Source: Desulfomonilia bacterium
Lineage (GTDB): Bacteria > Desulfobacterota > Desulfomonilia > UBA1062
NCBI GenBank assembly: GCA_050014195.1
Contig: JBEKDT010000001.1
Location: 426,296-490,295 of the forward strand
Direction: 5' to 3'
Length of the DNA stretch: 64,000 nucleotides
A program made the translations under genes and the position numbers. This document shows, one piece after another, positions 8,218 through 31,988 of this stretch. Under the pieces are notes generated by a model, which had not been told where the DNA came from, searched no databases, and saw only the letters and a list, made by a program, of their open reading frames with translations. Each line of letters opens with the position of its first letter. The stretch's first letter is position 1.

Positions 8218-8345
8218 AGTCCTGTCGGATAAGACTAATCCTGCAACACAGGAAACCACTTCGAAATACCATGGTACACATATTTTAATAATCTAATGAA
8301 ATTATTGTGGAATTAATCTTTCGAAAAGTTGGTATAGGAATTGTA
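8218..8345 (+). promoter_or_regulatory. Tandem enhancer motif (8218-8257), AT-rich spacer and sigma54-like promoter TGGTATAGGAATTGTA (8330-8345)
   Basis: 40-bp motif aligns without gaps to copies at 28979 and 31851. Confidence 0.65.
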
Positions 8346-8376
8346 AGTACCCACCCCATGTCAATAATCTTTATTT

Positions 8377-8670
8377 TTGATGAGGAGCTCATATATGTAC
8401 AGGAAGAAGAACCGCGATGAGGTTTCAAAAACAAAGGAATTCACTGCTATCGACCCGTTGTACGATCTCATCGAGATCATGGGTGACCATCTCGTTCGAG
8501 TTTATGAGCACAGGGAGAAATCAAGAGAACAAATAGGTAGCTATAAACAACCCTGCCAGGACCGCCTGATCGTCGAAGCGATAGCTGAATTCCTTATGAC
8601 AGGCAAGTTCCAGCTCAGATGCCCGATCAACGAGTGGGAAAATGTCAGTGTGGGAAGGTTTGAACGCTGA
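8377..8670 (+). CDS. Small hypothetical protein, probable paralog of 29205-29468
   Basis: LYDLIE...FLMTGKFQL pattern shared with the 29205 ORF; start uncertain. Confidence 0.65.
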   Translation: MMRSSYMYRKKNRDEVSKTKEFTAIDPLYDLIEIMGDHLVRVYEHREKSREQIGSYKQPCQDRLIVEAIAEFLMTGKFQLRCPINEWENVSVGRFER

Positions 8671-8680
8671 GGGAGACTTT

Positions 8681-8875
8681 ATGAGCAGGGTTGTCTATCT
8701 TGTGGAAGAAGAATGTATCGGATGCGGAATGTGTCAGGATACATGCCCGGAGGTGTTCAAGCTTAACGAGGAAACCAACGTTGCCGAGGTCATCAAGCCT
8801 GAAGGAGGCCCTGAAGACCTCATCCAGGAGGCCATCGATTCATGCCCTGTCGAATGCATCCATTGGAAGGAATGA
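8681..8875 (+). CDS. Single-cluster ferredoxin
   Basis: CIGCGMCQDTCP and SCPVECI; RBS GGGAG before ATG 8681. Confidence 0.95.
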   Translation: MSRVVYLVEEECIGCGMCQDTCPEVFKLNEETNVAEVIKPEGGPEDLIQEAIDSCPVECIHWKE

Positions 8876-8947
8876 TCGCATCCATATGCGGGCTTGCATG
8901 GCTTCTATACATGCCGGCCACTTTGAGATTGAGATAGAATTCCTCTC

Positions 8948-9364
8948 TTACTCACCGATGATTTTCACCAGCACCCGCTTTTTCCGCCTCCCGTCGAACT
9001 CACCATAGAAGATCTGTTCCCAAGGTCCAAAATCGAGTTTACCATCAGTGACTGCCACGACCGCTTCACGTCCCATGATCTGGCGTTTCAAATGTCCGTC
9101 CGCATTATCCTCACCTACATTATGGTGGTACTGAGAAACAGGGCCGTGAGGAGCGAGCTTTTCGAGCCATACTTCAAAGTCATGGTGCAAACCACCCTCG
9201 TCATCATTGATGAACACACTGGCTGTGATGTGCATTGCATTCACCAGCACGAGACCTTCCTTTACGCCGCTTTCTTTCAGGCACTGCCTTACTTGAGGTG
9301 TGATGTTGATGAACTCGACACGTTTGTCCGTGTTGAACCAGAGTTCCTTGCGAAAGGAATTCAT
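8948..9364 (-). CDS. yjbQ: YjbQ/UPF0047 family protein
   Basis: [31 protein letters not shown]. Confidence 0.92.
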
Positions 9365-9846
9365 CGTTTATCCCCATCATGCCTTCTTAACTCCATTGCC
9401 CATGAGGATACCATTAACCCTTCGTGAAACAGCACTCCTCGGTTTTCGTACTGTTCCGGTTCAAGCTGCCGAAGGTATTCCATCCCTGTAGAGGCCCCGT
9501 CCTCTGAGCTGAATGCGGATAGAATGGAATCTCCTACAACGGCATAAACGCCATACAGCGTCCCAAGGGTGGGGTTCCGCGAGCACCAGGTAGTCGTAAG
9601 GCCGTCTCTTTCAAAGGGGACAATCTCATAGTGATTCGTAAATTCCAAGCGGTTCTCTCCGAGCATCTTCATGGTACCTTCATTCACCCATAGATCGCCC
9701 TGGTGAATGATGCTCACTGTTCCTTCAGCCGCAACAGCTTTACCCTGATTATCTATGTACGTGCCTAACGCATGCCATGTTCCCGGGTGGAACAGAAAGG
9801 TGTGCCTCGTGGTTTCCATGTTTGCCCCCCTTATGAGATACTTCAT
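9361..9846 (-). CDS. Hypothetical beta-rich protein
   Basis: ORF overlapping the yjbQ start (translational coupling); no family recognised. Confidence 0.75.
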
Positions 9847-10019
9847 GATGCATAAAAAAATCTAGTCCAGCATCCACACTGGCCTTGGTGATGATACGAG
9901 AATAATACAGCCGATGTATGAAGCGCAAGTGTTGAACATATTACGTTGCAGCAAAACAGGACAGGAGGACTTGATTATAACAACGGCAATGGAGACAAAA
10001 AGTTTTTGTATCTTGCGGC

Positions 10020-10589
10020 TTACCTTCTTTTCTTATAATCCTTTCCCGAGCAGAAGGCCTTGCCTGCATAGTCTCCAACTTTCCAGTATTGGTTGTCAGG
10101 CATGGTTAAAAGCAGGGGGTCCATCTTCTTGATATCGGGCCTGCCCTCCGTAAGGCATCCCTCACCGGCATAAGCCCCGACAATCTCACCTATGTAGAAG
10201 GTATTGGTAGGGAACTCCATGGTCTTATTGAGCTCGCACTCCAAACACAAAGGGCATTCCTCGATCATGGGTGCAGTTTTGAGCTTGCCGTAGAATACAT
10301 GAAAGAGGCCGGCTTTATCGGCCTTCTCGCCTGATACTATACCGCAGTAGTCGGTGATCTCCATCATCTCGGCGTTGGGGAAATTTATGCTGAAAGTCTT
10401 AGTCTCGGCTATGCCTGGACAGGTGTAGTGGTGCCTGCCCACACCCACGCCGATCATCGGCGGATTCGCATTGACCCGGGTGATCCACCCCAGGGCCATG
10501 AAGTTGGGCTTGGCGTTCACCTGGGTTCCCAGGAGGGTGACCGGCATGGGAAAGACAAACGTGTTCGCCCCGATATCCACTTTCTTCAA
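10020..10589 (-). CDS. Flavin reductase/flavoredoxin family protein
   Basis: PMPVTLLG, PNFMALGW, DYCGIVSG, APMIEECPLCLEC. Confidence 0.92.
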   Translation of the reverse strand: MKKVDIGANTFVFPMPVTLLGTQVNAKPNFMALGWITRVNANPPMIGVGVGRHHYTCPGIAETKTFSINFPNAEMMEITDYCGIVSGEKADKAGLFHVFYGKLKTAPMIEECPLCLECELNKTMEFPTNTFYIGEIVGAYAGEGCLTEGRPDIKKMDPLLLTMPDNQYWKVGDYAGKAFCSGKDYKKRR

Positions 10590-13500
10590 GCACTCTTCCC
10601 CTTCAGATAATTAATCATGGGCTGAGTGACCAGCGGCACCACCTCTCCTATCATGTGGGGCATGAGGTTGGCAACGACCTTTGGCATGAGCTCAGGCATC
10701 TGCTCGCGCATGTAGTCGGGCATGGGGATGCGCTCGGAGACCTTCTTGAGCATAGTAGGCATGACCTTGGGCATCATCATGGGCAGCAGCCTCGGGAACA
10801 GGACCGGGAACATGGGCTTCATGAGGTCGAGCGCACCCGGAATTTTGCCCATAATGCGCATCATGGGCCCCATGCCGAACGGCATGGCAGAGATGAGCTC
10901 GGACCACATGGTACCCATGAGGTCGGCGAACCCCTGCGGTGTCATGAGTGCTATCATGGCCTCGAACACGGCCCACTGCTTCTGCACTTCGGGATTGGGA
11001 TCAGGGAAATCATACCCCAGGGCGGAAGAGGCGAATCGCGCCAAGTCCACTATTTCGAGCGGCATCTTCTTTTTTTCCGCAGTGACCCGGAACTGGAACT
11101 CGCAGCACGGGCACAGGGCCAGGACCTTCTGGGCTCCGGCATCCAATGCCTCGTTCAGACGCGTCTCCCCGATATCGGCGGCTACCAGGGGCTCCTTGAG
11201 GAGGTTGAGCACGCTCCCGCAGCAGTGCGCCTCGGCATGATGATAATCCATCTCCACGAATTTCACATGGGGGATCGCCTTGATGAGGTCCCGTGGCTCT
11301 TCATAAACACCCGATACACGGCCCATGTGGCACGAGTCATGCCAGGTTACCGTAACCTCTTCCTGCCCCGTATCCGGGAAGGTGAACTCGCCCGATCTGA
11401 TCTTTTCCGAGAGGATCTCGCTGTAGTGGCGTGCCGTTATGTCATAATCGATACCCAGCTTTTTAGCCCATGTCGGGTAGACATGTCGCCACATCATATT
11501 GCATGCAGGGCAGGATGTAATAACGGTGTCACTGCCGGCTTCTTTGACAGCCTTAATGTTCCTCCTCATGATCGCTTCAAACACATCCCACTTGCCGGCA
11601 ACCAGCATGGGCGTGCCGCAGCAGTTTTCCTTGTTGCCAACATAGGTGAAATCCACCCCTGCCTTATCCAGCAGCCGCACACTCGCCATGCCGATGTCCT
11701 CTTCCACATAGCTCGCGGTACACCCTGCGAAATAGACGTTCTTGGCCTTTGTGCCGGGGCCGTGCTTCTCCTTGAGGTCTTCTGGGAACCACTTGGCTCG
11801 GTCCTTACGGTAGCCGGCCCATATGTTGCCTTCCTTCATGGCTGCCGCCGACATGATCTCAAAGGGAGGGAAGGTCATCTTCTTTTCCTCATCTACGAGC
11901 TTGCCCCTGAGCTTCATCCAGGAAGGCTCTATGGGAAGCGCTGCAGAGCAACGGAAATTGCAGAGCTCGCAGGTGGTGCAGACCAGTATGGTGTCCACCA
12001 TCTTCTGGTTCCACTCCTGCTTGCCTTTCATATACTCCCGCAACCAGTACCACTTGCCCCTTGGGCTCTGGCTCTCCCATCCGCGGCCGTAGAACTGATC
12101 ACACTCATCCACACAGTAGCCGCACTGGGAGCAGCTGTAGGCATACCAGGCCACATCAGGCGGGATATCCCGAACATCTTTTTCAGGCCTCTCCCCCACT
12201 TCCGTGATAATGGCATAACTGAAAGGCCTGATGAGCGGCTCGAATATGCTCCCCAGTCTGACGGCAGTCCCGATGAGTCCTCCTCCGAGCACCTTGCCGG
12301 GGTTCAGTATCCCCTTGGGGTCGACCTTCTTTTTGAATGACTTCATCCGGGCAAGGCGGTCTTTTCCGAGGACCGCCTTTGCCTTGTTCTTGAAATAGAG
12401 CCCTGTGGCATACGCTCGTCCGCCATATTTTTCAGCAATCTTCATGACCGTGAGCGACAGAGGGAAGACGAAGTTGTAGCTGAACTTCCGCTCATCGCTC
12501 GGGATGAATCCGAGGATGACCACCTCGGGCTTGCCGGATGCCGATTTCCTGATGACCACCCCCTCCTTGACCACGGGCTGCTGGATGGTGCTCTCCACCT
12601 TCTTCATGAAGTCGCCGAAGGAAGACAGCGGGATGACCACTTCGGCGGGTACAAGACTTGGACCCAAGCGCTTCACCACCATGAGCTTGAATCGGTGCTT
12701 CCATTCATGGTACGCAATTTTATCACTCAGGATCTCTGCCTCGCACAGTTTGATGATCTTGCCGAGGCCGCTCATAACCTGCCCTGCGTCCTTCTTACGG
12801 AAGGTGAGCGTGATGATGTAGGATGCAGGCAGGAGCACCCGCTCCTCTGCCGGGTGGCCCCAGTGCTCCATCATAGGTGCCTGGTTCTTCATCTCCGCCA
12901 TCTTCGGGTTGATGAACACGATGGACCATATGGGCAGGCCTTCGGATATCATTGCCTCCATGAGCTTCTGGAGGTCATGGGGGTTCGGACAGCCGATGGA
13001 GACCAGATCCATGGGCTCATCAAGCTGTACCTTAATGGTGATCTCGCCGATCAGCCCGGTTATGCCTTCCGCATCACTGATCATATCGAGATCTTTCCCC
13101 TCGAACACGCTGACCGTACCATCGGGAAGCACGACGCGGGCACTCAGCACGATGTCCCTGAACCAGCCGGCTTCAAACGAACCGAAGCCTGCACCTCCCT
13201 GGGCAAGCCAGCCTCCTGCTGTTGAGCTCGGGTAGCTGGAAGGATAGGTAAGCAGCGTGAGGCCTTTCTTCTTCAGCTCGCGGTCAAGCCCTTCCCAAAC
13301 AATACCAGGCTGGACAGTGGCTGTAAGCTTATCTTTATCGATAGAAAGCACCTTCTTCATGCGGTAGAAATCCACCACGATGCCGTTCTCAACGGGCAAA
13401 ACTCCGCCGTAGCCCGAAGAAGCCTTGCCCCTCGGGGTGAGCGGGATATGGTTTTTGGCGGCCCACATCACCAGTTCTTTCAGCTCCTCTTCGCTCTGGG

Positions 13501-13672
13501 GCTGCACCACGGCATCGGGGGTGGTATCGCCGATCAAGGGCTTGATAAGGCTCGGCATGGCGGCTATGTCATGCCCATAGAGCATTCGCTCCACGTCATC
13601 AAAGGTCACACGGTCCTTGAATTTTTCCTTGAGATATTCTTTATGGGCTTTGCTGAGATTCGACATGCTCAT
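10586..13672 (-). CDS. FAD-linked oxidoreductase (GlcD/Dld-type) fused to 2x[4Fe-4S] and CCG (GlpC/HdrD-like) domains, with Met/Pro-rich tail
   Basis: PRGKASSGYGG, VQPGIVW, DPKGILNPGK; CSQCGYC, CTTCELCNFRC; ENCCG, TWHDSCH, HCCG. Confidence 0.9.
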   Translation of the reverse strand: MSMSNLSKAHKEYLKEKFKDRVTFDDVERMLYGHDIAAMPSLIKPLIGDTTPDAVVQPQSEEELKELVMWAAKNHIPLTPRGKASSGYGGVLPVENGIVVDFYRMKKVLSIDKDKLTATVQPGIVWEGLDRELKKKGLTLLTYPSSYPSSTAGGWLAQGGAGFGSFEAGWFRDIVLSARVVLPDGTVSVFEGKDLDMISDAEGITGLIGEITIKVQLDEPMDLVSIGCPNPHDLQKLMEAMISEGLPIWSIVFINPKMAEMKNQAPMMEHWGHPAEERVLLPASYIITLTFRKKDAGQVMSGLGKIIKLCEAEILSDKIAYHEWKHRFKLMVVKRLGPSLVPAEVVIPLSSFGDFMKKVESTIQQPVVKEGVVIRKSASGKPEVVILGFIPSDERKFSYNFVFPLSLTVMKIAEKYGGRAYATGLYFKNKAKAVLGKDRLARMKSFKKKVDPKGILNPGKVLGGGLIGTAVRLGSIFEPLIRPFSYAIITEVGERPEKDVRDIPPDVAWYAYSCSQCGYCVDECDQFYGRGWESQSPRGKWYWLREYMKGKQEWNQKMVDTILVCTTCELCNFRCSAALPIEPSWMKLRGKLVDEEKKMTFPPFEIMSAAAMKEGNIWAGYRKDRAKWFPEDLKEKHGPGTKAKNVYFAGCTASYVEEDIGMASVRLLDKAGVDFTYVGNKENCCGTPMLVAGKWDVFEAIMRRNIKAVKEAGSDTVITSCPACNMMWRHVYPTWAKKLGIDYDITARHYSEILSEKIRSGEFTFPDTGQEEVTVTWHDSCHMGRVSGVYEEPRDLIKAIPHVKFVEMDYHHAEAHCCGSVLNLLKEPLVAADIGETRLNEALDAGAQKVLALCPCCEFQFRVTAEKKKMPLEIVDLARFASSALGYDFPDPNPEVQKQWAVFEAMIALMTPQGFADLMGTMWSELISAMPFGMGPMMRIMGKIPGALDLMKPMFPVLFPRLLPMMMPKVMPTMLKKVSERIPMPDYMREQMPELMPKVVANLMPHMIGEVVPLVTQPMINYLKGKSA

Positions 13673-13718
13673 GCCTCCTGTGTGCTATCCCGCTGAGTTA
13701 ATCGGAGCTGTTCCTGCA

Positions 13719-15008
13719 TTAAAAATACCATGTGAGTCCGAAGTCAAGGCTGTCCTCGCTCAGCGTGGACTTGAGGGAGACTGCCTGTCCGAACGGGTCG
13801 GTGCCGGACTCAGAGATGGTCTTCTCGAAGGCATGCATGTAGCCAAGGTTCATGGAGAACTGCTTGGTGAAATTGTATCCAACACCGCAGGTCACATGCT
13901 TTTCAGCAACGGCCGGGAAACCGATGATCCGGAAGGTCTCATAGTAATAGGCAGGGAATATGGTTCCCTGGACATTGACAGCGCTGTTGGGCATGCCGGT
14001 TGATGGATTGAAGCTCCCATTAAATCCGTTGTGCTCCTCAACAGGGTTTTTCGCATAGTTGAATCCGGCCCTGACAGTGAATTTCTTGATCGGCTCCGCC
14101 TTCAGCCCGATGGCATAGACCAACTGATTTTTCCAGTCAAAATCTTTATAGCCGGCGGCATTCGCCCAGTTCAGCCATTTGACATCTGTCTCCACAAGAA
14201 GATTCATTGCAGAGGGGATCTCATATGAAGCACCGACCCCAAGCTGAGTGGGTGACTCCAGCTTCAATCTATTCAGGTTGGGCAGGTTGATGTTGTCATG
14301 GATTGTCTCCTGGGGAGAAGTATAGCTCAATCCCAGGTTGATTGAATCCGTGGGCATGAAGATAAGACCCAACTGGCCCCCGGCGGAATAGGCCGGTGAA
14401 GTGCCGTTCCTCAGATCGAGCATTGCATAGTCGATGTGAACTGCCATACCAAGGGAGAGTTTGTCCGTGAGAAGCACACTTAAAGCCGGTGCGAACTTCA
14501 TGACCTGCAGTGAGGTATAATCTCCCTGGATGAGAGGTGCGGTTTTCCCTCCCCCGAAATTATAATATGAAGAATTATCAAGTGCCCCACCACGATAATC
14601 TACGCCGAGACCCGTCACGCCATACGCTGCAATCCCGAACCTCCACACAGGAAGCTTATCCGTGATAGGCACGGACAGGCCTATGGCAGGAATGGCATAG
14701 ACAGAACTCGCAGATGAGTCCTCTGCAACTGACCCTGCATGTACGACCTCTGCCTTCACATGGGGCATGAAGAGCGTACCTGCAAAATCAAAGGATGATG
14801 ACGGGCAGTACGGGCCGACGCACATGGCGGCAGGGTTGGCGAACACGGCACTGATCGCATCCTGCGGGGCGGCAATGCCTGTCCCTCCCATTGCACGGGC
14901 ATTGGGTCCGATGCCGATCAGGTTATCGCCGTTCGTGGCAAAGGCTCCTGAACCAAACGCCATAATGACCAGCAATATGATCGCCGAACTTATTGAACTT
15001 CTTTTCAT
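13719..15008 (-). CDS. FadL/OmpP1/TodX outer-membrane transporter
   Basis: Signal peptide, ATNG..IGPNARAMGG, NPA motif, C-terminal aromatic TWYF. Confidence 0.88.
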   Translation of the reverse strand: MKRSSISSAIILLVIMAFGSGAFATNGDNLIGIGPNARAMGGTGIAAPQDAISAVFANPAAMCVGPYCPSSSFDFAGTLFMPHVKAEVVHAGSVAEDSSASSVYAIPAIGLSVPITDKLPVWRFGIAAYGVTGLGVDYRGGALDNSSYYNFGGGKTAPLIQGDYTSLQVMKFAPALSVLLTDKLSLGMAVHIDYAMLDLRNGTSPAYSAGGQLGLIFMPTDSINLGLSYTSPQETIHDNINLPNLNRLKLESPTQLGVGASYEIPSAMNLLVETDVKWLNWANAAGYKDFDWKNQLVYAIGLKAEPIKKFTVRAGFNYAKNPVEEHNGFNGSFNPSTGMPNSAVNVQGTIFPAYYYETFRIIGFPAVAEKHVTCGVGYNFTKQFSMNLGYMHAFEKTISESGTDPFGQAVSLKSTLSEDSLDFGLTWYF

Positions 15009-15091
15009 AACTTCCTCCTTGTGTTTCTTAAGATATCGATACCTGGCTCATGCAGTGGGTACTCTGGATAAGAATCTCCTTTTACATGGTG

Positions 15092-15427
15092 TTACTTTAA
15101 GTTTCTGTCTATAAAAGCAGCGAGTTTGGCCTTGGGGAGTGAACCAATCTGCGTCCCCCGGACCAGTCCTCCTTTTATGAACAATAATGTGGGTATGCTC
15201 CGGACTCCGTATTTTCTCGATGTCTCAGGACTCTCATCAACATTCACCTTCACCATATTCACCCGTCCGTCATATTCCTTGGCTATGTCTTCCAGAACCG
15301 GTCCGATAGCCCGGCAGGGTCCGCACCATGGTGCCCAGAAATCCACCAGGGCAGGGCTTTCAGACTTTATAACAATGGCATCAAACGTGTTATCATCGGC
15401 ATGGGTTACATATTGCTTGCTCTCCAT
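15092..15427 (-). CDS. trxA: Thioredoxin
   Basis: DFWAPWCGPC, YGVRSIPT. Confidence 0.96.
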   Translation of the reverse strand: MESKQYVTHADDNTFDAIVIKSESPALVDFWAPWCGPCRAIGPVLEDIAKEYDGRVNMVKVNVDESPETSRKYGVRSIPTLLFIKGGLVRGTQIGSLPKAKLAAFIDRNLK

Positions 15428-15534
15428 TCTTCGCTCCTTAAAAGTGTTGATTTCTTTTGCACCGGGATTCTTGCTTATGATAACAAGGTCTCATCCCGTG
15501 AGGTTAAGCATAAACCAGCTCAGTGGCGCGGTCA

Positions 15535-15548
15535 TTGATCTAGATCAA
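15535..15548. promoter_or_regulatory. FNR-type box TTGATCTAGATCAA
   Basis: Perfect TTGAT-N4-ATCAA palindrome in the divergent intergenic region. Confidence 0.85.
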
Positions 15549-15563
15549 CGGAAATAGAAATTT

Positions 15564-16244
15564 ATGGATATACTGAAACAGATTCAGGACATCCCTCTCT
15601 TCCAGGGGCTCTCCAATGATGTATTGGAGGCCCTTTCCCTGCGTGTCCTGATCGGGACGTACCAGCCGGGAGAGGTGATTGTTGCCGAGACGGACCTGGT
15701 CAAGCAGTTCTTTGTCGTTATTACGGGGCAGGTGAAACTTTCCAAGAGCTCGATAGAGGGCAAGGAACAGACCCTGTACCTTTTAGGACAAGGGGAACCT
15801 TTCGGCCTGTGCACCGCCTTTGCCACCCATGACTTTCCCGCCGAGGCCCTGGCGCTCAAAAAGTCCGATATCCTCACCATTCCCGGAGCAGCCGTGGAGG
15901 AGATCGTCATGAAAGAGCCGGCACTCCTCCTGAACATCCTGAAGGTGCTATCCAACAGGCTCAAGGAATCCATGAGCCTCATCGAGTCCCTGGCGCTCAA
16001 GGAGATCCCCCAGCGCCTGGCCTCATTCATCATCCTCACCCAGCTAAGGGAAAATAAGGACAAAGGCGGCCGGATCGAGTTGTCAATTACCCATCGCGAG
16101 CTGTCGAAGATACTCGGGTCAACACCCGAGGCCCTCTCCCGTGCGTTGAGAAAAATGCAGAACGATGGAGTATTGGAAGTTCAGGGAAGGGTAATCACTA
16201 TCCTGAACCACAAGGCCCTGGAGGAACTCTCGGAAGGTGAGTAG
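15564..16244 (+). CDS. Crp/Fnr-family regulator (Dnr/HcpR-like, no N-terminal Cys cluster)
   Basis: cNMP-fold (GQVKL..GKEQTL..GEPFG) plus HTH ELSKILGSTPEALSR. Confidence 0.93.
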   Translation: MDILKQIQDIPLFQGLSNDVLEALSLRVLIGTYQPGEVIVAETDLVKQFFVVITGQVKLSKSSIEGKEQTLYLLGQGEPFGLCTAFATHDFPAEALALKKSDILTIPGAAVEEIVMKEPALLLNILKVLSNRLKESMSLIESLALKEIPQRLASFIILTQLRENKDKGGRIELSITHRELSKILGSTPEALSRALRKMQNDGVLEVQGRVITILNHKALEELSEGE

Positions 16245-17804: not shown

Positions 17805-17900
17805 GTTATAGACAATTCCTTGTTATGGTCGGTTATTACGTCCCGACCTCATTTAAAAATAAAATGAACAGCAGCATTATAATGTTGTAATACCCAACCA

Positions 17901-20923: not shown

Positions 20924-22303
20924 TTAAAAGTGTTTCTTCCTCCGGTTTGAAGGAAGAATACCAAGCAGCTCACGGTACTTGGCAACGGTCCTGCGTGCTA
21001 TCCTCACCCCTTTCCCTTTCAGTTTATGGGCTATGGCCTGGTCGCTCAGGGGATGTTTGGCATCCTCCGCCTTGATGATATTTTCAATTTCATTCTTAAC
21101 GCTCTGGGATGCGATAAAACTTCCGTCGCTCTTGGATATACCGCTGTTGAAGAAATACTTGAGCTCGAATGTGCCCTGGGTCGTATGCACATATTTATTA
21201 GATGTAACCCTGCTGATGGTGGATTCATGCATGCCCACATCATCGGCAACGTCTCTGAGGACTAATGGTTTCAGGTTCGTGATACCGTGGTCGAGAAAAT
21301 CTTTCTGGAACTTGACGATGCTCTCTGTGACCTTGCACAGGGTATTCTGCCTCTGCTGGATGCTCTTTAAAAGCCACTGGGCAGACTTGTAGCAGTCGGA
21401 GAGGTAGTCCTTGGCCATCTTGCCCATATTGTCGGACTTCATCATGATCTGGTATTCTTTGTTGAGCTTGAGCATGGGCAGATCCTCCTCATTGAGCAGG
21501 ATCATATACTCCCCCTCCATTTTCACCACATACACATCCGGGACGATGTACTGGGGGGGATCGTCTGAGTAATCACGGGCGGGACGGGGTTCCATGTTGA
21601 CGATGATCTGGGCGGCCTGTGCCACATCATCCACGGTTGCAGAAAGCTCCTGGGCGATCTTGTTGTAGTTTTTGGTCTGGAGGTCCTCCAGGTGGGAATC
21701 GATTATCCTCCACACCAGGGTGTTCTCCAGGTCCAGTATTCTCGCCTGGATCCTGAGGCAGTCCTTCAGGTCACGCGCCGCGATGCCGGGAGGGTCGAAC
21801 CGCTGAACCTTGACAAGTACCGACTCAACTATGTCGGGTGTTGACCCGGTTTCCTGGCATATGGTCTCGGTATCAAGCCCCATGTAGCCGTTATGATCGA
21901 GGTTGCCGATGATGAAGAGGCCCACTTCCTGTTCTTTATCGGTAAAATCATTCAGTCTCAACTGCCAGAGGAGATGGTCCATGAGCCCTTCGGGTTTGCA
22001 GGTAGTGGACTCGATGGAGGGCCGCTCATCGTCTTCATAGTAGGGGATATTGTCCTGGCCGTATGTCTCCAGGTAGGCATCCCACCTTTGCCTGAGCTGT
22101 TCCTTCTCCTTGACGGATTCGGGGGTGTCCTCGCGTACACGGGCAATTTCCACATCGAGCAGCGGGTTTTGTTCGAGCTCGCTGTCGATATATTCCTGCA
22201 GCTCGAGCCTGCTAAGCTGCAGGAGTTTGATAGCCTGCTGGAGCTGTGGCGTCATTATGAGCTGCTGCGCCAGCTTGAGATGTTGCTTAAGCTCCAAGGC
22301 CAT
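20924..22303 (-). CDS. rpoN: RNA polymerase sigma-54
   Basis: TPQLQQAIKLLQL, HESTISR, RpoN box ARRTVAKYRE. Confidence 0.98.
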   Translation of the reverse strand: MALELKQHLKLAQQLIMTPQLQQAIKLLQLSRLELQEYIDSELEQNPLLDVEIARVREDTPESVKEKEQLRQRWDAYLETYGQDNIPYYEDDERPSIESTTCKPEGLMDHLLWQLRLNDFTDKEQEVGLFIIGNLDHNGYMGLDTETICQETGSTPDIVESVLVKVQRFDPPGIAARDLKDCLRIQARILDLENTLVWRIIDSHLEDLQTKNYNKIAQELSATVDDVAQAAQIIVNMEPRPARDYSDDPPQYIVPDVYVVKMEGEYMILLNEEDLPMLKLNKEYQIMMKSDNMGKMAKDYLSDCYKSAQWLLKSIQQRQNTLCKVTESIVKFQKDFLDHGITNLKPLVLRDVADDVGMHESTISRVTSNKYVHTTQGTFELKYFFNSGISKSDGSFIASQSVKNEIENIIKAEDAKHPLSDQAIAHKLKGKGVRIARRTVAKYRELLGILPSNRRKKHF

Positions 22304-22315
22304 CCTTAACTCCTC

Positions 22316-24530: not shown

Positions 24531-25354
24531 GAGGTTACCTCGTGGATCTTTTTCAGCTGTACTAAAAGAGGTTCCAGCCGATCGAGCCTCAGGCTGTTCG
24601 GGCCGTCGCTGAGTGCCTGATCCGGGTTGTCGTGCACCTCCAGGAAGATACCGTCAAGCCCGAAGGCCACACCGGCCCGGGCAAGCTGAACGATATACTC
24701 GGCATTGCCACCCGATGATGAGCCCTGTCCTCCGGGGAGTTGGAGACTGTGGGTCACATCGAGGATTACGGGAAAGCCGAGCGAACGCATGACGGCAAGG
24801 CTCCTCAAATCGCACACCAGGTTGTTGTAGCCCAGACTCACTCCGCGTTCGGTAAGGATAATAGCATTGTTCCCGGTGCTTTGCACCTTTGCTGTTACAT
24901 TGCCCATGTCCCAGGGTGCCATGAACTGTCCCTTCTTGATGTTTACCGGCAGGCCCGTCTTGCCTGCTGCAACGAGGAGATCGGTCTGCCTGCACAGAAA
25001 GGCAGGGATCTGGAGCATGTCCAGGACATGAGCGGCAGGACCTGCCTGCAAAGGGTCGTGGATGTCCGAGGTGACGGGGATGGAAAGACGTTTCTTGATA
25101 TCCAGAAGGATATGAAGGCCCATCTCGAGACCGGGCCCCCGGTATGAATCGATGGATGAGCGGTTCGCCTTATCAAAGGATGCCTTGAAGATATAGGGGA
25201 TCCCCATGCGGGAGGTGATATCGCGAATACTTTCCGCCATGAACAGGGCATGGTCCTGCGATTCAATGACGCACGGGCCCGCGACCAGCACCAGATCGCC
25301 GGAACCGATAGTGATGTCATGAATCTTTACCTTTTGCATATACCCCTGCCGCAC
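24527..25354 (-). CDS. kdsA: KDO8P synthase
   Basis: AGPCVIE, KASFDKANRS, QIPAFLCRQTDL, KKGQF. Confidence 0.97.
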   Translation of the reverse strand: MRQGYMQKVKIHDITIGSGDLVLVAGPCVIESQDHALFMAESIRDITSRMGIPYIFKASFDKANRSSIDSYRGPGLEMGLHILLDIKKRLSIPVTSDIHDPLQAGPAAHVLDMLQIPAFLCRQTDLLVAAGKTGLPVNIKKGQFMAPWDMGNVTAKVQSTGNNAIILTERGVSLGYNNLVCDLRSLAVMRSLGFPVILDVTHSLQLPGGQGSSSGGNAEYIVQLARAGVAFGLDGIFLEVHDNPDQALSDGPNSLRLDRLEPLLVQLKKIHEVTS

Positions 25355-25532
25355 GTGATTACTTTAGCCGCCGATCCAAAATGATAATCGGTGCTCCTGC
25401 TAGGGGATTTATCGTATGGTACGTGGGGTGTCAAGCAATCAGAAGATCAAAACACGCTAAAAGAGCACGGCTGTTTAGAGGGGCCGGGATAGGGGTTGAC
25501 TACTCGATTCTGGATACTAATTATCTTTCTCC

Positions 25533-27260
25533 GTGACCATGAAGGCATACCCGAGGGAAGATCTATCCATTGTGCTTTCCGGTGAAGCAGGACAGGGCCT
25601 GCAGACCTTGGAACAGCTGATGCTGAAGGTCTTCAAGCTCTCAGGATACCATGTCTTTTCCTATAGCGAATTCATGTCGAGGATCAGGGGTGGGAACAAC
25701 TCCACCCAGATACGGATCTCTGCAAAGAGGGTTGCGTCTTACCTCAGAAGGATCGATATATTCGTTCCGCTCAATGCCGGCGCCATGGAACGGTTTCACG
25801 ACCGGATAACCCGTGAAACGGTCATCCTGGGCGATCGTACATTCATTGACAAACAGTACTTCGATGAGGGCTATCCCATTGGGGAGGTACCCATTGGAGA
25901 AATTGCCAGGGGGATCGGCGGACCGGTTTATACGAATATCCTCGTGCTCGGGATATTTGCAGGGCTCTTAGGGCTTGAAATGGGTCTGCTTGAAAATCAG
26001 GTGAGGCAATTCTTCAGCAAAGCCGGAGATGAACGTACCGGCAAGAACATTGATGCGGTAAGGAAGGGCTTCGACACAGGCTCTCACGTGCTTAAATCGG
26101 GCCAGGTCCTTCCCGTCATCACAAAATCGGAAGAAGTGAAGAATGAGCTCCTCATGAACGGTGTCGATGCAATAGGCATAGGAGGTCTTGCCGGAGGATG
26201 CACGTTCGTCTCATCCTACCCCATGTCTCCATCAACCGATGTCCTGGTGTTTTATGCCAGGAATGCACACGATTTCGGGCTGGTGGTGGAACAGGCGGAA
26301 GATGAAATAAGCGCCGTCAACATGGCACTTGGTTCCTGGTATGCCGGGGGGAGGGCTTTGGTGACTACCTCAGGGGGAGGATTTGCGCTGATGGTGGAGG
26401 GGGTGAGCCTTGCCGGATGCATCGAGTCTCCCCTGGTCATCCATATCGGCCAGCGCCCCGGCCCTGCAACAGGCCTTCCTACCCGCACCGAACAGGCTGA
26501 CCTGGAGCATGCCCTCTACTCCGGCCATGGTGAATTCCCCAGGCTGATCCTGGCGCCCGGTACCATAGAAGAGGGGTTCTGGCTTACACGCCATGCCTTC
26601 CGGATGGCAGATAAGTACCATATCCCTGTTTTTATCCTTACGGATCAGCACTATCTCGAATCCAATCATACCTTGAACCGCCTGGATATCCCGGAGCCGT
26701 TAAACGAGAGCTTTATCAAAGAGACAGACACCGCATATAAACGCTATTTGTTCACGGAAAGCGGCATCTCACCAAGGGGCATACCCGGCTTCGGCCAGGG
26801 GCTGGTTTGCGTGGACAGCGACGAACATGATGAGAACGGATATATCACGGAAGACTGTTCGGTGCGATCTTCCATGGTTGAGAAGCGGCTTCGGAAACTT
26901 AAGGCCATGGAAACCGACACGATAGCGCCGACACTCACCGGAGGGGATGACTATCGGCATCTTGTCGTCGGGTGGGGTTCGACCTATAACGTCGTCAAGG
27001 AGGCCCTGGAAATCCTCCAACGAAAAGACCTCTCCTTCCTGCACTTCTCCCAGGTGTATCCACTCCACCCGAAGGCCCGTGAACTCATCAATCGGGCAAA
27101 AAAAAGGTTCATCATCGAGAACAATGCCACGGCCCAGTTCGGAAAATTGATCAGACTGCATACAGGAATCGAGCTTGATGGGAAGATTCTCAAGTTCGAC
27201 GGCATGCCGTTCATGCTCGAAGAAGTCGTAGAGCAGCTGGATGCCCTGATGGGAAGGTGA
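25533..27260 (-). other. No minus-strand feature: antisense ORFs over the oxidoreductase alpha gene are shadow frames
   Basis: Short minus ORFs here lack motifs; the plus-strand gene explains the region. Confidence 0.05.
25533..27260 (+). CDS. korA: 2-oxoacid:ferredoxin oxidoreductase alpha subunit (gamma-alpha fusion)
   Basis: GEAGQG, SRIRGG, YPMSPS, QAEDEISA, QRPGPATGLPT. Confidence 0.92.
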   Translation: MTMKAYPREDLSIVLSGEAGQGLQTLEQLMLKVFKLSGYHVFSYSEFMSRIRGGNNSTQIRISAKRVASYLRRIDIFVPLNAGAMERFHDRITRETVILGDRTFIDKQYFDEGYPIGEVPIGEIARGIGGPVYTNILVLGIFAGLLGLEMGLLENQVRQFFSKAGDERTGKNIDAVRKGFDTGSHVLKSGQVLPVITKSEEVKNELLMNGVDAIGIGGLAGGCTFVSSYPMSPSTDVLVFYARNAHDFGLVVEQAEDEISAVNMALGSWYAGGRALVTTSGGGFALMVEGVSLAGCIESPLVIHIGQRPGPATGLPTRTEQADLEHALYSGHGEFPRLILAPGTIEEGFWLTRHAFRMADKYHIPVFILTDQHYLESNHTLNRLDIPEPLNESFIKETDTAYKRYLFTESGISPRGIPGFGQGLVCVDSDEHDENGYITEDCSVRSSMVEKRLRKLKAMETDTIAPTLTGGDDYRHLVVGWGSTYNVVKEALEILQRKDLSFLHFSQVYPLHPKARELINRAKKRFIIENNATAQFGKLIRLHTGIELDGKILKFDGMPFMLEEVVEQLDALMGR

Positions 27261-27263
27261 GGA

Positions 27264-28127
27264 ATGGGAACGGAATTCGACATTGATTACCCTGCGGATA
27301 TTGCGTGGTGCCCCGGATGCGGAAACTATCATATCCTCACGGCGCTCAAGGCCGCTCTTTCGGAGCTGGCACTCCATCCGGCATCGCTCGTCTTCGTATC
27401 CGGAATCGGACAGGCGGCCAAGACCCCTCAATATCTGAAGACCAACTACTTTAACGGCCTCCATGGGAGATCTCTGCCTGTTGCCACGGCGGTCAAGGTG
27501 ACGAATCCGGAGCTTACGGTCATTGCTCAGAGTGGTGATGGATGCATGTACGGCGAAGGGGGCAACCATTTCCTCCATGCCATTCGAAGAAACCCGGACA
27601 TCACGGTGATCATCCACAACAATATGGTGTACGGGCTTACCAAGGGACAGGCATCTCCCACGAGCATGCGGGGCTTTGTTACACCCATACAGGTGGGTGG
27701 GGTATGCATGGAGCCCTTCAATCCTCTGGCCCTTGCCATTGCCCTGAATGCATCGTTTGTTGCGAGGGCCAATGCAGGGGACGAGGAGCAGACAAAGGAA
27801 ATCCTGAAAAAGGCCATCACTCATAAAGGATTCGCAATCGTTGACATATTGCAACCCTGCGTATCATTCAACAGGGTTAACACCTACCAGTGGTACAAGG
27901 ATCATACGTATTATCTCGATGATTCCCACAATCCATCCGACAGGGATGCCGCCTTCTCAGCAGCAACCCGATCGGACAGGTTTGCCCTGGGACTGATTTA
28001 TATCGGTTCAGGAATACCCACCTTCTCCGAGTGTCAGGATGTCTATAAGACCGATCCCCGGCCGCTCTATCAACATATGGCGAGCCGTGAAAAGATCGAA
28101 TCCTTGCTGAATGCAAAGAGGATATGA
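27264..28127 (+). CDS. korB: 2-oxoacid:ferredoxin oxidoreductase beta subunit
   Basis: [16 protein letters not shown] motif [16 protein letters not shown]. Confidence 0.93.
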
Positions 28128-28924
28128 GAATGAACCTTACAGGCAGGGTAGCCGTCATAACCGGTGCAGGACGAGGTCTTGGCAAGGCTATAGCCCTTGC
28201 TTTTGAACTATCAGGTGCCAATGTTACTTTGTTCAGCCTGTTGGAGGATGAACTGAAAGATATCGCCGCCGACCTTGAAAAGCTCGGCGGAGAATATCTC
28301 CTGCATACCGGAGATGTGTCGGATGAGCATGATGCGGCTTCTGTGGTTGCTGAAACTTTTGCACGGTTCAGCAGAATAGACATCCTTGTGAACAATGCAG
28401 GCATCATCGGGCCGGCGCGGTTCCTTGAGGATGCCGTGCCGTCAGAATGGAAGCAGACATTAGATGTGAATCTTACCGGAAGCTATCTCTTTTGCCGGGA
28501 GGTGATTCCTTACATGATCAAACAGGGAGGCGGTAAAATCATCAATATCGTTTCCGGACTCGGGCAGATGCCGTTCCCGCGTTTCTGTGCATATTCGGTA
28601 TCCAAAGCCGGTCTCATCCAGCTTACTCGGTCGCTCTCTGAAGAATTGAACCCCTTCAATATTCAGGTTAATGCCATCGATCCCGGCCTGATGGATACAA
28701 CTATGGGAAATGAAATTCGCGCTATGGGCCCTGACGCACTTGGCCAGGGCCTGTACAACCAGATGATCGGGTATAAGGAGCAGGGTATATTAAAAGACCC
28801 CAGAGACATAGCGGATCTCGCGGCATTTCTTGCATCATCCGATTCAGGGGATATGACAGGTCATATCGGAACCACGAAATACTACCGTACTCTCGGATGG
28901 AAACCAAGCGAGCCGAATATTTAG
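28124..28924 (+). CDS. SDR family oxidoreductase
   Basis: [17 protein letters not shown]. Confidence 0.93.
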
Positions 28925-28978
28925 CAAGTACTCCTTTTTTAAATCATATCAACACCGATCTTCATCCTAAGATTCGAT

Positions 28979-29117
28979 ATTCCTGCGAAAAAGGATTTGT
29001 CCTGTCCCACAAGACAATCAGCGATAAACCACAAGGAATGAGGAAACCCGTAGATGCTAATAATATAATGAAATTATTTAACATTAAATATTCTACCGCG
29101 ATGGCACGCCTATTGAA
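28979..29117 (+). promoter_or_regulatory. Tandem enhancer motif (28979-29018), AT-rich spacer and sigma54 promoter TGGCACGCCTATTGAA (29102-29117)
   Basis: Perfect -24 element TGGCACG; enhancer motif shared with 8218 and 31851. Confidence 0.8.
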
Positions 29118-29204
29118 TACATCAGATGATAAGAGATATGAGTGCCAGCCATGTAATCAAAGGCAGGACTCGGGTTATGAAGATTAATCACGTGGAGGTT
29201 AGTC

Positions 29205-29468
29205 ATGAATTCATATACGGAATCAAGCTTAGGCAAGGATGGATCGAACACTACGAGAATAACCACACTCTACGATCTTATGGAAGAGATCAATGCAGAA
29301 CAGATCAGCCCACAAAGGGATCCAGGCAGTTACAGTATCCAGGACCCTGCGGGGAATGGTCGATTCAGTCCGGCGGCAGAGAAGGTTTTTCAGATGTTTG
29401 AATCGGGACAAATCAGGTTCAAGAATCTCCAGGATGTCAAAAGAAAATATGCTGGGTGGCTATTCTGA
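29205..29468 (+). CDS. Small hypothetical protein, probable paralog of 8377-8670
   Basis: GGAGG RBS; TTLYDLMEE...MFESGQIRF. Confidence 0.75.
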   Translation: MNSYTESSLGKDGSNTTRITTLYDLMEEINAEQISPQRDPGSYSIQDPAGNGRFSPAAEKVFQMFESGQIRFKNLQDVKRKYAGWLF

Positions 29469-29533
29469 CATCAGTCATGAACACCAAGGTTAAATTCGGC
29501 AATAAATGCCACGCCTGACGGCATGGTAATTCT

Positions 29534-30334
29534 ATGGGGAAGGAAATACCTATGGACAACTCTTATGATTATATGGATTTTCAACAATACTACAGGGAAA
29601 TTCAGCAATACCCAACTCTAACCCATGAGAAAGAGTATGAACTGGCAAAACAATATCAAAAGGGCGACGAAGCTGCCGGACAGCAATTAATCCAGGCGAA
29701 CCTCAGGTTTGTGGTGAGGGTGAGCAGGAAATATTTTTATTGCGGTCACCATTGCCTCGAGATCATTCAGGAAGGAAACCTTGGTCTCATCAGAGCCCTT
29801 AATCGTTTTGACCCTGAGCGAGGGATACCTTTTGTCTACTATGCAGTTTGGTGGGTTGAAGCCTTCATCAAGGCTTTCATGCACAAGAGCGGAAAGGTGA
29901 ACACGGGGAGTCTGAGTCATGCCAAGAAATTGCACTCATTGGATGAACACCTTGGAAACGATGACGATAAAGACCGATGGATTGATTTTCTCACAGATGG
30001 TGCTGATCCGGAGAAAATGTATAATGGCAGGGAGTCATCTCAAAATATTTCATCCGTACTCCATCATTGCTTCACCTTCCTCTCTCCAAGGGAAATATCT
30101 GTCCTGAAACAACGATTTTATTCTGATCCGCCTGTTAAGCTTAAGGAAATAGGGATGCAACTTGGTGTAAGCAGAGAACGTGTCAGACAAATCCAGACAA
30201 GATCCATGGAAAAATTAAAACAAATTTTAGAAGATCAGGTAAAGGGCCTTTGGGAGTCAACAACCCATGATTCCCATCCACTCACCGAGATCAATCAACT
30301 GGGGTTTATACGGAGAGGAGAATATCAAAACTGA
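29534..30334 (+). CDS. Sigma70-family factor (RpoH/group 3-like, shortened region 3)
   Basis: Region 1.2 YYREIQQYPTL, region 2 ANLRFVV..IQEGNLGL..FDPERG..YAVWW, region 4 LKEIG..GVSRERVRQI. Confidence 0.92.
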   Translation: MGKEIPMDNSYDYMDFQQYYREIQQYPTLTHEKEYELAKQYQKGDEAAGQQLIQANLRFVVRVSRKYFYCGHHCLEIIQEGNLGLIRALNRFDPERGIPFVYYAVWWVEAFIKAFMHKSGKVNTGSLSHAKKLHSLDEHLGNDDDKDRWIDFLTDGADPEKMYNGRESSQNISSVLHHCFTFLSPREISVLKQRFYSDPPVKLKEIGMQLGVSRERVRQIQTRSMEKLKQILEDQVKGLWESTTHDSHPLTEINQLGFIRRGEYQN

Positions 30335-30391
30335 AGTATCCCTCTTTACTGAAACACTCTGGCATGTTTTGATCTAAGATTTCTTTACATC

Positions 30392-31822
30392 TTGGAGAAA
30401 AGACTTTATCATGTTCAAGTGCCCATAGGTAATCAGGAAAAGATACTTGTTATCGATGATGACAATCTTGTCTGCAGTTCCATAGCAAACGTTGCTAAAG
30501 CCTTGGGATACAATGCTACGACAGCCCTTACCCTGAAAGAAGGCATCGAGTCGGTTAACAAGGAACCGTATGATGTAGTGTTTCTTGATGTGCATATGCC
30601 TGATGGGAACGGGATCGAAATGCTTCCCAAAATCTGCCAGAGTGGCGGCCGACCTGAAGTTATCGTCATAACCGCCTATGGAGATCCGGAATCAGTCGAG
30701 ACAGCCCTTTCCCGGGGGGCCTGGGATTACATTGAAAAACCCTTTTCGAAGAACGATCTTGTCCATCTGTTAAAAGATGCAATTCTCTTTCATGAAAGCA
30801 ATAAGCAACCATTGATCAGCGTAGATTTTGAGAAAGAGGGGATCATTGGTAAGAGTTCCCAGATGAGAGAATGCCTGGCATTACTAAGCAAGACATTAAA
30901 CAGTGATGCCAATGTGCTGCTTACCGGCGAAACAGGAACGGGTAAAGATCTCTTTGCGCTGGCAATCCACAATAACTCCAGCCGCGCCAAGAATAACTTT
31001 ATTGTGGTCGACTGTGCCTCCTTGCCCCCGAATCTGGTGGAAAGCATTCTTTTCGGTCACGAGAAGGGATCATATACCAGTGCGGATAAAGCGCAGCAAG
31101 GTCTGGTCATACAGGCCCACAGGGGGACACTGTTTCTGGATGAAGTGGGTGAACTCCCCCTGTCCATCCAGCAAAAGTTCCTGCGTATCCTCCAGGAGGG
31201 TCGCTTCCGTCCTGTCGGAAAACCCACTGAGATTGAAAGCGATTTCAGAATCATATCTGCCACAAACCAGAATCTGGACAATTTAGCAGAGATAAAAAGA
31301 TTCCGAAAAGATCTCCTCTTCAGACTCAAATCCATCACCATCCATCTCCCTGCACTCAGAGATCGACCCGAGGATATCCTGGAATTGACAAATCACTACC
31401 TGCAAAAACTCTGCAAGAAATATGGCATGAAACCAAAGCGCCTCAGTACTGCATTTAGAGATACCATCATGCAGTATGCCTGGCCCGGTAATGTACGTGA
31501 ATTGATTCACGCACTGGAGAGCTCGCTTACGGTTGCACATGATAGTGCCATCCTGGTCCCAAAACATCTTCCACACCATATTCATGTGCAGGTGAAGCAA
31601 AATACTGTTGCAGCTAAAAAAAAGAAACCGCTGCGCATTGCGACAAACAACAGCCTTTCCAGCCTCAATGAGGTGCGGGAAGAGGCTATCGCTGAGATAG
31701 AACAGCAGTATCTTAAGGAGTTGATGATCCGGACAAAAGCCCATATTGAGACAGCCTGCAGAATATCCGGGCTATCCCGCTCGCGTCTCTACGCCTTGCT
31801 GAAGAAGTACAACATATCATAG
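30392..31822 (+). CDS. Sigma54-dependent response regulator (NtrC family bEBP)
   Basis: REC domain; AAA+ GETGTGK, ESILFGHEKGSYTSA (GAFTGA variant), LFLDEVGE, WPGNVREL; Fis-type HTH. Confidence 0.95.
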   Translation: MEKRLYHVQVPIGNQEKILVIDDDNLVCSSIANVAKALGYNATTALTLKEGIESVNKEPYDVVFLDVHMPDGNGIEMLPKICQSGGRPEVIVITAYGDPESVETALSRGAWDYIEKPFSKNDLVHLLKDAILFHESNKQPLISVDFEKEGIIGKSSQMRECLALLSKTLNSDANVLLTGETGTGKDLFALAIHNNSSRAKNNFIVVDCASLPPNLVESILFGHEKGSYTSADKAQQGLVIQAHRGTLFLDEVGELPLSIQQKFLRILQEGRFRPVGKPTEIESDFRIISATNQNLDNLAEIKRFRKDLLFRLKSITIHLPALRDRPEDILELTNHYLQKLCKKYGMKPKRLSTAFRDTIMQYAWPGNVRELIHALESSLTVAHDSAILVPKHLPHHIHVQVKQNTVAAKKKKPLRIATNNSLSSLNEVREEAIAEIEQQYLKELMIRTKAHIETACRISGLSRSRLYALLKKYNIS

Positions 31823-31850
31823 TATTCTTGAATCGATATTTCATACGTGC

Positions 31851-31988
31851 ATTCCTGCCGGAAGAGACTAGTCCTCCCACACAGGACAATCAGCATTCAC
31901 TCTTGAAAGATATGCGTATCATGAAATCATGTAACAAACTAATATTACATGCTGTCTCTTAATCTTCAACAATGGCATGGTAATTGAG
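31851..31988 (+). promoter_or_regulatory. Tandem enhancer motif (31851-31890), AT-rich spacer and sigma54 promoter TGGCATGGTAATTGAG (31973-31988)
   Basis: Third copy of the motif, same spacing to -24 as the 28979 copy. Confidence 0.78.

Follow-up and report, generated by a model that had tools for sequence, protein, structure and literature searches.

We describe three copies of a 40-bp tandem palindrome in a 64,000-nt stretch of the genome of a Desulfomonilia bacterium (JBEKDT010000001.1, positions 426,296 to 490,295; hereafter the window), each of which lies upstream of a sigma-54 promoter-like element. We consider it likely, at a rough probability of 0.72, that these 40-mers belong, as upstream activator sites, to a small autoregulated sigma-54 regulon, the activator of which would be the NtrC-type bacterial enhancer-binding protein (bEBP) encoded within the window at 30392 to 31822. 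An earlier note on this DNA had proposed such a regulon from the window alone; the comparative evidence set out below supports that reading, and every part of it that could be tested in silico held. Chance is excluded as the source of the three-site pattern. The genome that contains the window, labelled G000 here, is 4,215,580 bp long, and the 24 runs listed for the sequence are all contigs of peat or wetland DNA.

Three tandem sites and their promoter-like elements

The three 40-mers that the earlier note had placed at 8218, 28979 and 31851 are present exactly as quoted, on the plus strand. Each contains two imperfect TCCT-N7-RRGA palindromes 19 bp apart, with TCCT at positions 3 and 22 of the 40-mer. 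The claimed distances of 113, 124 and 123 bp from the start of the 40-mer to the GG of a -24 element are also correct, the GG starting at 8331, 29103 and 31974. In ungapped pairwise comparisons the 40-mers are identical at 23/40, 30/40 and 29/40 positions, and 21 columns are identical in all three. The sites and the elements behind them, with scores from a position weight matrix (PWM) described below, are as follows.

8218 to 8257, plus strand: putative upstream activator site 1; two TCCT-N7-RRGA palindromes; PWM score 27.1, genome rank 3
8330 to 8344, plus strand: sigma-54 promoter-like element 1, TGGTATAGGAATTGT; -24 TGGTAT, -12 TTGT; same element in the ortholog of the related genome G003
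28979 to 29018, plus strand: putative upstream activator site 2; PWM score 52.8, genome rank 1
29102 to 29116, plus strand: sigma-54 promoter-like element 2, TGGCACGCCTATTGA; -24 TGGCAC, -12 TTGA
31851 to 31890, plus strand: putative upstream activator site 3; starts 29 bp past the bEBP stop codon; PWM score 41.3, genome rank 2
31973 to 31987, plus strand: sigma-54 promoter-like element 3, TGGCATGGTAATTGA; -24 TGGCAT, -12 TTGA

For the chance test, the pattern TCCT-N7-RRGA-N4-TCCT-N7-RRGA was sought with at most one mismatch in the window and in 100 shuffles. The window gave five matches, all accounted for by the three sites, two of which were read on both strands; the expectation was 0.03, and none of the shuffles reached five. 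In the whole genome, on both strands, the exact pattern has exactly three matches, the three window sites themselves. The tandem pattern was derived from these sites; hence, a separate weight matrix was built from 17 sites taken from other genomes only. In the genome scan with this matrix, a check suggested by the earlier note, the window sites took the top three ranks, while the next unrelated position scored 19.2.

The 17-bp palindrome has the consensus GTCCT-N7-AGGAC and is arranged in tandem at 19 bp centre to centre. Positions that the search pattern left free are conserved as well: the first unit is preceded by an A, the first TCCT is followed by a G, and the last GGA has RCA in front and CA behind. 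This makes the site an asymmetric one of about 40 bp. Matches to the promoter pattern TGGYAY-N5-TTGW number four in the window, as against 1.01 expected, and three of the four sit behind the 40-mers. The fourth, TGGCAT-N5-TTGA at 42822 to 42836, has no tandem motif upstream, overlaps an open reading frame (ORF) on the opposite strand (42463 to 43101) and is probably due to chance.

Conservation in related genomes

The comparison set comprised 41 genomes, namely, G000 and 40 related genomes; these are kin, and the counts describe a pattern rather than provide a statistical test. Orthologs of the bEBP, at 67 to 97% identity, were detected in 9 of the 40 related genomes (10 of 41 with G000), the remaining matches being paralogs at 50% identity or less. 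Exact matches to the motif were likewise found in 10 of the 41 genomes, and a reversed-pattern control gave none in all 41. Motif and ortholog occur together in 9 genomes and are both missing from 30, with one genome having only the ortholog and one only the motif. A scan of relatives for the motif upstream of -24/-12 elements, also suggested in the earlier note, yielded 23 distinct units of enhancer and promoter in the window and nine relatives and a 24th in the genome G004. By downstream gene, the 23 units are distributed as follows.

Small protein A: 9 units
Small protein B: 5 units
PEP-CTERM protein: 5 units (one target passes PF07589 and one was read directly)
Sigma factor directly: 2 units
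Cys-rich protein: 1 unit
Unclear: 1 unit

The -24 GG element is kept in all 23 units, one of which has CGGCAC, and the orientation of the enhancer relative to the promoter is the same in 23/23. Enhancer and promoter are intact at all three loci in both G000 and G003, and at site 2 the substitutions between these two genomes are confined to unconserved spacer positions. Copies of the motif adjoin the bEBP gene both in the window and in five relatives, G003, G007, G011, G018 and G024. In each of these relatives, the bEBP gene has a second enhancer-promoter pair behind it; the gene that follows encodes a PEP-CTERM protein in G003, G007 and G011 and a second sigma-like protein in G024, and in G018 small protein A and the sigma factor are encoded there. 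One motif-bearing operon of G002 is located approximately 14 kb away from the bEBP gene.

Three relatives also encode a stand-alone 80-aa Fis-type helix-turn-helix (HTH) protein (PF02954) between the bEBP gene and the downstream enhancer, at L063:6231-6473 (G007), L070:10061-10303 (G011) and L067:5811-6053 (G018). This protein, which is not present in the window, is 44 to 50% identical to the bEBP C terminus, and a TGGCAC/T-N5-TTGT sequence lies ahead of its gene. It might act as a competitor at the same sites.

Spacing and the AT-rich spacer

Distances from the first TCCT to the promoter TGG fall into two classes. The short class has seven units, at 108 (three units), 109 (one), 110 (two) and 112 bp (one), and the long class has 16, at 119 (four), 120 (four), 121 (seven) and 122 bp (one). 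None of the 23 units has a distance between 112 and 119 bp, although the search accepted 91 to 149 bp. The difference of about one helical turn that had been proposed from the three window sites is thus a property of two spacing classes across the whole set. NtrC-type enhancers are tandem dimer sites located some 100 to 150 bp upstream of sigma-54 promoters, often with IHF, and the 108 to 122 bp found here is within the range of approximately 80 to 150 bp expected of bEBP enhancers.

The spacer sequence reported as common to sites 1 and 2 is a 21-mer, TAATAAT[C/A]TAATGAAATTATT, which occupies the following positions.

8286 to 8306, plus strand: AT-rich spacer element of site 1; holds AATGAAATTATTG (8295 to 8307), one mismatch from the IHF consensus WATCAANNNNTTR
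29058 to 29078, plus strand: AT-rich spacer element of site 2, shared with site 1

In a scan at no more than one mismatch from this consensus, a match occupies a fixed place at -41 in 6 of the 16 long-class units, and other units of this class show a TGATATCA-type sequence there; a forward match is found at -35 in two of the seven short-class units, one of which is window site 1. There are 11 genes of the HU/IHF family in G000. An IHF site between enhancer and promoter is frequent, not obligatory, and from these sequences IHF help at the promoters described here is plausible.

The candidate activator and possible partner kinases

30392 to 31822, plus strand: NtrC-type bEBP, proposed activator; receiver, AAA+ sigma-54 interaction domain and Fis-type HTH C terminus; L1 loop GSYTSA

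Domain matches of this protein are to PF00158 (207.6 bits), PF00072 and AAA_lid_14, and it aligns over its full length, including the C-terminal HTH, to the NtrC and AtoC models. The acidic pocket, the phospho-acceptor Asp, Walker A, Walker B and the C-terminal HTH segment are invariant among the bEBP orthologs. Between G000 and G003, the ratio of nonsynonymous to synonymous substitution rates (dN/dS) is 0.20 for the bEBP, which is under purifying selection, and 0.30 for small protein A. Judged by its sequence, the bEBP looks functional.

A paralog of the bEBP at 50% identity is encoded with a kinase in G011 and has a GAYTGA loop. Behind its gene come tandem GTCCGG-N5-CCGGAC palindromes at a distance of 20 bp from each other, which lie 145 bp before TGGCATGGATATTGA (L012:1230-1380; contig C27, minus strand). 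The arrangement is a sister system: the GTCC-N9-GGAC core is shared, and the promoter likewise lacks the -12 C (TTGA).

In G001, G002, G006, G007, G011, G018 and G024, a gene for a hybrid histidine kinase lies directly upstream of the bEBP gene (comparison loci L063, L065, L066, L067, L068, L069 and L070). Five of these seven have the order enhancer and promoter, small protein A, sigma factor, kinase, bEBP; the exceptions are G002, the copy of which is without small protein A, and G018, where small protein A and the sigma factor are encoded behind the bEBP gene. The five kinases that were scanned against Pfam are 421 to 1398 aa long and have from zero to several PAS/GAF domains before a HisKA-HATPase-receiver core, four of the five having PAS or GAF. 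One further kinase gene is located in the window itself.

36431 to 37885, plus strand: hybrid histidine kinase, 484 aa; HisKA, HATPase and receiver; 4.6 kb downstream; 30 to 39% identity to the relatives' kinases

Because its identity to the kinases of the relatives is only 30 to 39%, the suggestion that this protein might be the displaced partner of the bEBP is a guess.

Genes behind the sites, and rpoN

8395 to 8670, plus strand: small protein B, 91 aa; behind site 1; lineage-restricted family
8642 to 8875, plus strand: ORF for a small 4Fe-4S ferredoxin; follows small protein B directly; translation probably starts further inside the ORF
20924 to 22303, minus strand: rpoN (sigma-54); all three sigma-54 Pfam domains; in an lptB-rpoN-hpf cluster
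29205 to 29468, plus strand: small protein A, 87 aa; behind site 2; first gene of the proposed autoregulated operon
29534 to 30334, plus strand: sigma-70-family factor; regions 1.2, 2 and 4; RpoH/RpoS-like
32033 to 32356, plus strand: small secreted PEP-CTERM-type protein, 107 aa; behind site 3; weak PEP-CTERM family match, E 0.0035
32465 to 32830, plus strand: Cys-rich (zinc-ribbon-like) protein, 121 aa; behind the PEP-CTERM-type gene

All reading frames behind the three sites are open. The sigma factor scores far under the cut-offs of both curated models with which it was compared (RpoH, 167.9 of 323.1 bits; RpoS, 149.5 of 378.7 bits). The PEP-CTERM-type protein of the window has no Pfam match and ends in the tail LPKPSTLFLLG, with PKP for PEP, where the G003 ortholog has VPEPSTLFLLG; dN/dS between the two is 0.92, a value based on 8 substitutions only. 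Its sorting signal may be impaired, to judge by this tail. Counterparts with the PEP motif are present in G007 (PF07589, 30.2 bits), G003, G011 and G013. The Cys-rich gene is probably cotranscribed with the PEP-CTERM-type gene; a homolog in G007 (L017) has its own enhancer and promoter, and one in G002 is placed behind small protein A and the sigma factor.

Small protein A, small protein B and the Cys-rich protein have no family in Pfam or NCBIfam. There are 72 clusters related to small protein A and 27 related to small protein B, all of them named hypothetical and without a Pfam domain, and the named sources of the homologs are metagenome bins of Desulfomonilia or Syntrophaceae. A single BLASTP comparison of the two proteins was not significant (E 0.36), and small profiles reached 50.8% only; enlarged profiles compared with hhalign gave a probability of 93.6% (E 2.2e-7, 63 columns), and the two proteins are therefore distant homologs. 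An AlphaFold2 model of small protein A from 28 alignment rows has a mean predicted local distance difference test score of 57.7, with three short helices and disordered ends, and is too weak for a fold search; a search of the ESM Atlas with this protein gave no usable match. The complex prediction for the sigma factor with small protein A scored 0.01 against a mark of 0.32, was run without controls and says nothing on binding either way. Our guess is that the small proteins exert feedback control over either the sigma factor or the bEBP.

The earlier note had also drawn attention to rpoN in the same window. The gene is there, and the proposed regulon would need its product, but its nearness carries no weight and is incidental because it sits in the usual lptB-rpoN-hpf cluster. 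Farther along the window, an Nramp gene (33476 to 34783) and an MgtE-N/CBS gene (34803 to 36089) are intact. At G003 L072:7541-10161 the former is represented by three ORFs and the latter by two, which could be pseudogenes or assembly errors.

Discussion

In the mechanism that we propose, each 17-bp palindrome would bind one dimer of the 30392-31822 response regulator through its Fis-type HTH, and two adjacent dimers would seed the AAA+ ring. DNA looping would then bring the ring to the sigma-54 holoenzyme approximately 110 or 120 bp downstream, where the promoter would be opened; both spacing classes would place the ring on the same face of the helix. Promoter 1 would drive small protein B and the ferredoxin, and promoter 3 the PEP-CTERM-type secreted protein and the Cys-rich protein. 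Promoter 2 would drive small protein A, the RpoH/RpoS-like sigma factor and the bEBP itself, resulting in positive autoregulation and in a cascade from sigma-54 to a sigma-70-family factor. In the relatives, the probable source of the signal would be the PAS/GAF hybrid kinase whose gene separates those of the sigma factor and the bEBP. What the sequences themselves show is that the sites exist, are unique and conserved, keep a fixed geometry and co-occur with the bEBP ortholog; the binding protein, activation, looping and the signal are parts of this scheme that we infer.

Several observations weigh against such a regulon. The sigma-54 contact loop of the bEBP is not the canonical GAFTGA: it is GSYTSA in the window and G003, GSYTGA in seven orthologs and GAYTGA in G001, with the Thr kept throughout. 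The -12 elements of the three window promoters deviate from TTGC, as the earlier note had seen (TTGT, TTGA and TTGA), and this holds for the whole set; the GG-N10-GC spacing and the TTG are kept, and the canonical C is missing from 23/23 units (13 TTGA and 10 TTGT), the 24th, in G004, being TTGA. The base following TTG had been left free in the promoter search, and the baseline for TGGYAY-N5-TTGN in noncoding-like DNA of the genome is 34 C, 14 A, 9 T and 6 G. Either the noncanonical L1 loop or the C-less -12 element could mean weak or altered activity. In addition, the kinase is absent from between the sigma factor and the bEBP in G000 and in its 97%-identical sister G003; only a gap of 57 bp separates the two genes there (30334 to 30392 in the window), and the operon kinase has therefore been lost or moved in this sub-lineage. 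Sites 2 and 3 of the window have no match to the IHF consensus at one mismatch or fewer. G006 has the ortholog and has the motif only as a one-mismatch site with a promoter, while in G004, a genome of 71% completeness, two sites are present but an ortholog was not detected at E ≤ 1e-100. Finally, there are 24 other bEBPs in the genome, and the assignment to the 30392 protein draws on linkage and on co-occurrence among kin that are not independent of one another.

Some of these features have precedents. The single variants GSFTGA and GAYTGA are reported to be compatible with activation (PMC6615313, PMC4641369), and by our hand count 9 of 87 promoters in a list from Desulfovibrio vulgaris are without the -12 C (PMC4641369). 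Within G000, which has 25 bEBP AAA+ domains, the 30392 protein is the only one with a Tyr in the loop; the loops of the other 24 are GAFTGA in 17, GSFTGA in 4, GAFSGA in 2 and GSFSGA in 1. Four further noncoding sigma-54-like promoters in this genome, at C8:200274, C1:337433, C17:60156 and C14:63654, carry TTGAAT or TTGTAT at the -12 position and are not preceded by the tandem TCCT motif; these may be targets of other activators able to work with a -12 element that lacks the C.

We have considered whether the contact loop, which is doubly or triply altered (GSYTGA or GSYTSA), and the C-less -12 element co-evolved into a private promoter dialect, with the -12 base as a second layer of specificity, and regard this as distinctly improbable. 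If true, the second layer would insulate the regulon from the other 24 activators, and the system would be a natural case of the coupling between L1 loop and -12 element, the study of which has until now relied on PspF mutants, reportedly by Dago in 2007 and by Zhang in 2009. A general rule that a Tyr in the loop goes with a non-C base at -12 was rejected on the D. vulgaris data. The promoters of DVU0679 (GAYTGS) and DVU2275 (GAYTDA) carry the canonical GC, and the C-less promoters include ones assigned to GAFTGA activators, e.g., DVU0804 and DVU0621 (PMC4641369). As the rule fails in D. vulgaris, co-evolution of loop and promoter is kept only as a reading of low probability.

The alternative that survives best is that the sites are real sigma-54 enhancers bound by another regulator, either one of the 24 other bEBPs or a separate modulating DNA-binding protein, and that the linkage to the 30392 gene is coincidental or reflects co-regulation. 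We think this unlikely. The number of bEBP AAA+ domains in the genome speaks for it, as do the motif without a detected ortholog in G004, the distance of approximately 14 kb between one motif-bearing operon and the bEBP gene in G002, and the 80-aa Fis-type HTH protein encoded beside a site in G007, G011 and G018. However, the G004 assembly is only 71% complete, the ortholog is present in 9/10 genomes with the motif and missing from 30/31 without it, and in the window as well as the five relatives named above the motif is immediately adjacent to the bEBP gene. The 50%-identical paralog (L012), moreover, has a tandem palindrome of its own, related to the motif but not identical with it, which fits a pattern of one site type per paralog.

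Still less probable, indeed very unlikely, is a decaying remnant in G000, the kinase having been lost, the L1 loop having drifted to GSYTSA and PEP having mutated to PKP, with the sites persisting in a nonworking state. It is true that G000 and G003 alone are without the kinase between sigma factor and bEBP and alone have GSYTSA, and that the window PEP-CTERM protein combines PKP with its dN/dS of 0.92 on 8 substitutions. Decay is made less likely, however, by the dN/dS of 0.20 for the bEBP and 0.30 for small protein A, by enhancers and promoters that are intact in both genomes with changes only at unconserved positions and by the open reading frames.

Next to no credence is left for the palindromes as RNA or DNA structure, i.e., terminators or a dispersed repeat with fortuitous -24/-12 matches, since, although a minus-strand terminator is called at the second palindrome of both site 1 and site 2 and site 3 is only 29 bp past a stop codon, the stems have only 5 to 6 pairs with 7-nt loops, the TCCT/AGGA arms are conserved without compensatory change (letters that the search pattern fixes) and so are the unfixed flanks (an A ahead of the first palindrome and a CA following the other), orientation and promoter distance are fixed in 23/23 units, site 1 is located between divergent genes at a place where none terminates, and the motif is missing from 31/41 genomes, unlike a generic repeat. 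Scans for sigma-70 promoters and terminators around the sites gave counts at or near shuffle expectation, and the promoter matches explain nothing.

The regulon proposed here resembles several described systems. The bEBP regulons of D. vulgaris share with it a response-regulator bEBP, palindromic upstream sites, a -24/-12 promoter and autoregulation, and in that reconstruction the regulator was assigned by colocalization and conservation, the same logic as ours (PMC4641369). Comparative reconstruction of bEBP regulons is an established practice (PMC4641369, PMC6615313). In contrast to the D. vulgaris regulons (PMC4641369), the motif, lineage and targets here are new, all promoters lack the C at -12 and the loop is GSYTSA or GSYTGA.

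A second likeness is to the PrsR/PrsK/PrsT system, in which a 17-nt motif ending in TTTACA lies 32 to 92 nt before the sigma-54 promoter of PEP-CTERM genes (Haft et al. 2006, PMC1569441). Both have an activator motif and a sigma-54 promoter before single PEP-CTERM genes (a PEP-CTERM-like gene in the window), and both have an NtrC-like regulator with receiver, AAA+ and Fis-type HTH that is, or here would be, paired with a histidine kinase; the gap between motif and promoter, 72 to 83 nt here, is inside the published 32 to 92 nt (PMC1569441). Identity of the 30392 protein with PrsR was rejected, as it scores 299.5 bits against a TIGR02915 cut-off of 502.6 and ranks 23 of 25 genomic matches. TTTACA is absent from all three regions between 40-mer start and promoter, as read directly; only one of the three window targets is PEP-CTERM-like, and the relatives' kinases show PAS/GAF or no sensory domain, whereas PrsK is described as a transmembrane kinase (PMC1569441). 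A true PrsR (C17:17414-18745, 557 bits) and one exosortase (C17:29935-30696) are encoded approximately 11 kb apart on another contig, and canonical PEP-CTERM regulation coexists in this genome.

The Rrp2-RpoN-RpoS pathway of Borrelia is likewise a cascade from sigma-54 to an alternative sigma factor. In the HrpR/HrpS-sigma-54-hrpL system, too, bEBPs and sigma-54 drive the gene of a sigma-70-family factor (PMC3105312, PMC5263251), and the contact loop of HrpS also has a Tyr, GAYTGA (PMC3105312). Unlike in these cascades, the sigma factor gene, the small protein gene and the bEBP gene would here form one autoregulated operon, and the sigma factor is neither of the extracytoplasmic function type nor a curated RpoS or RpoH.

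Literature searches, which covered listings and passages of the cited papers, found no published description of this system or of sigma-54 regulation in Desulfomonilia. The lineage-restricted regulon is previously undescribed: its mechanism is familiar, and the motif, the lineage and the target genes are new. As the mechanism is that of the textbook, the value of the finding lies in annotation and in a test bed and not in a new principle. Two unannotated protein families, of 72 and 27 clusters, receive a first context. With its promoters all lacking the -12 C and its candidate activator carrying an unusual contact loop, the regulon would provide a natural system for studying activator-promoter specificity outside the enhancer. 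For an uncultured lineage of peat and wetland, the result is a complete and testable wiring diagram, in which a kinase (in the relatives) would signal to an NtrC-type activator that, with sigma-54, would control an alternative sigma factor, two small proteins from a family not yet catalogued, a PEP-CTERM surface protein and a ferredoxin.

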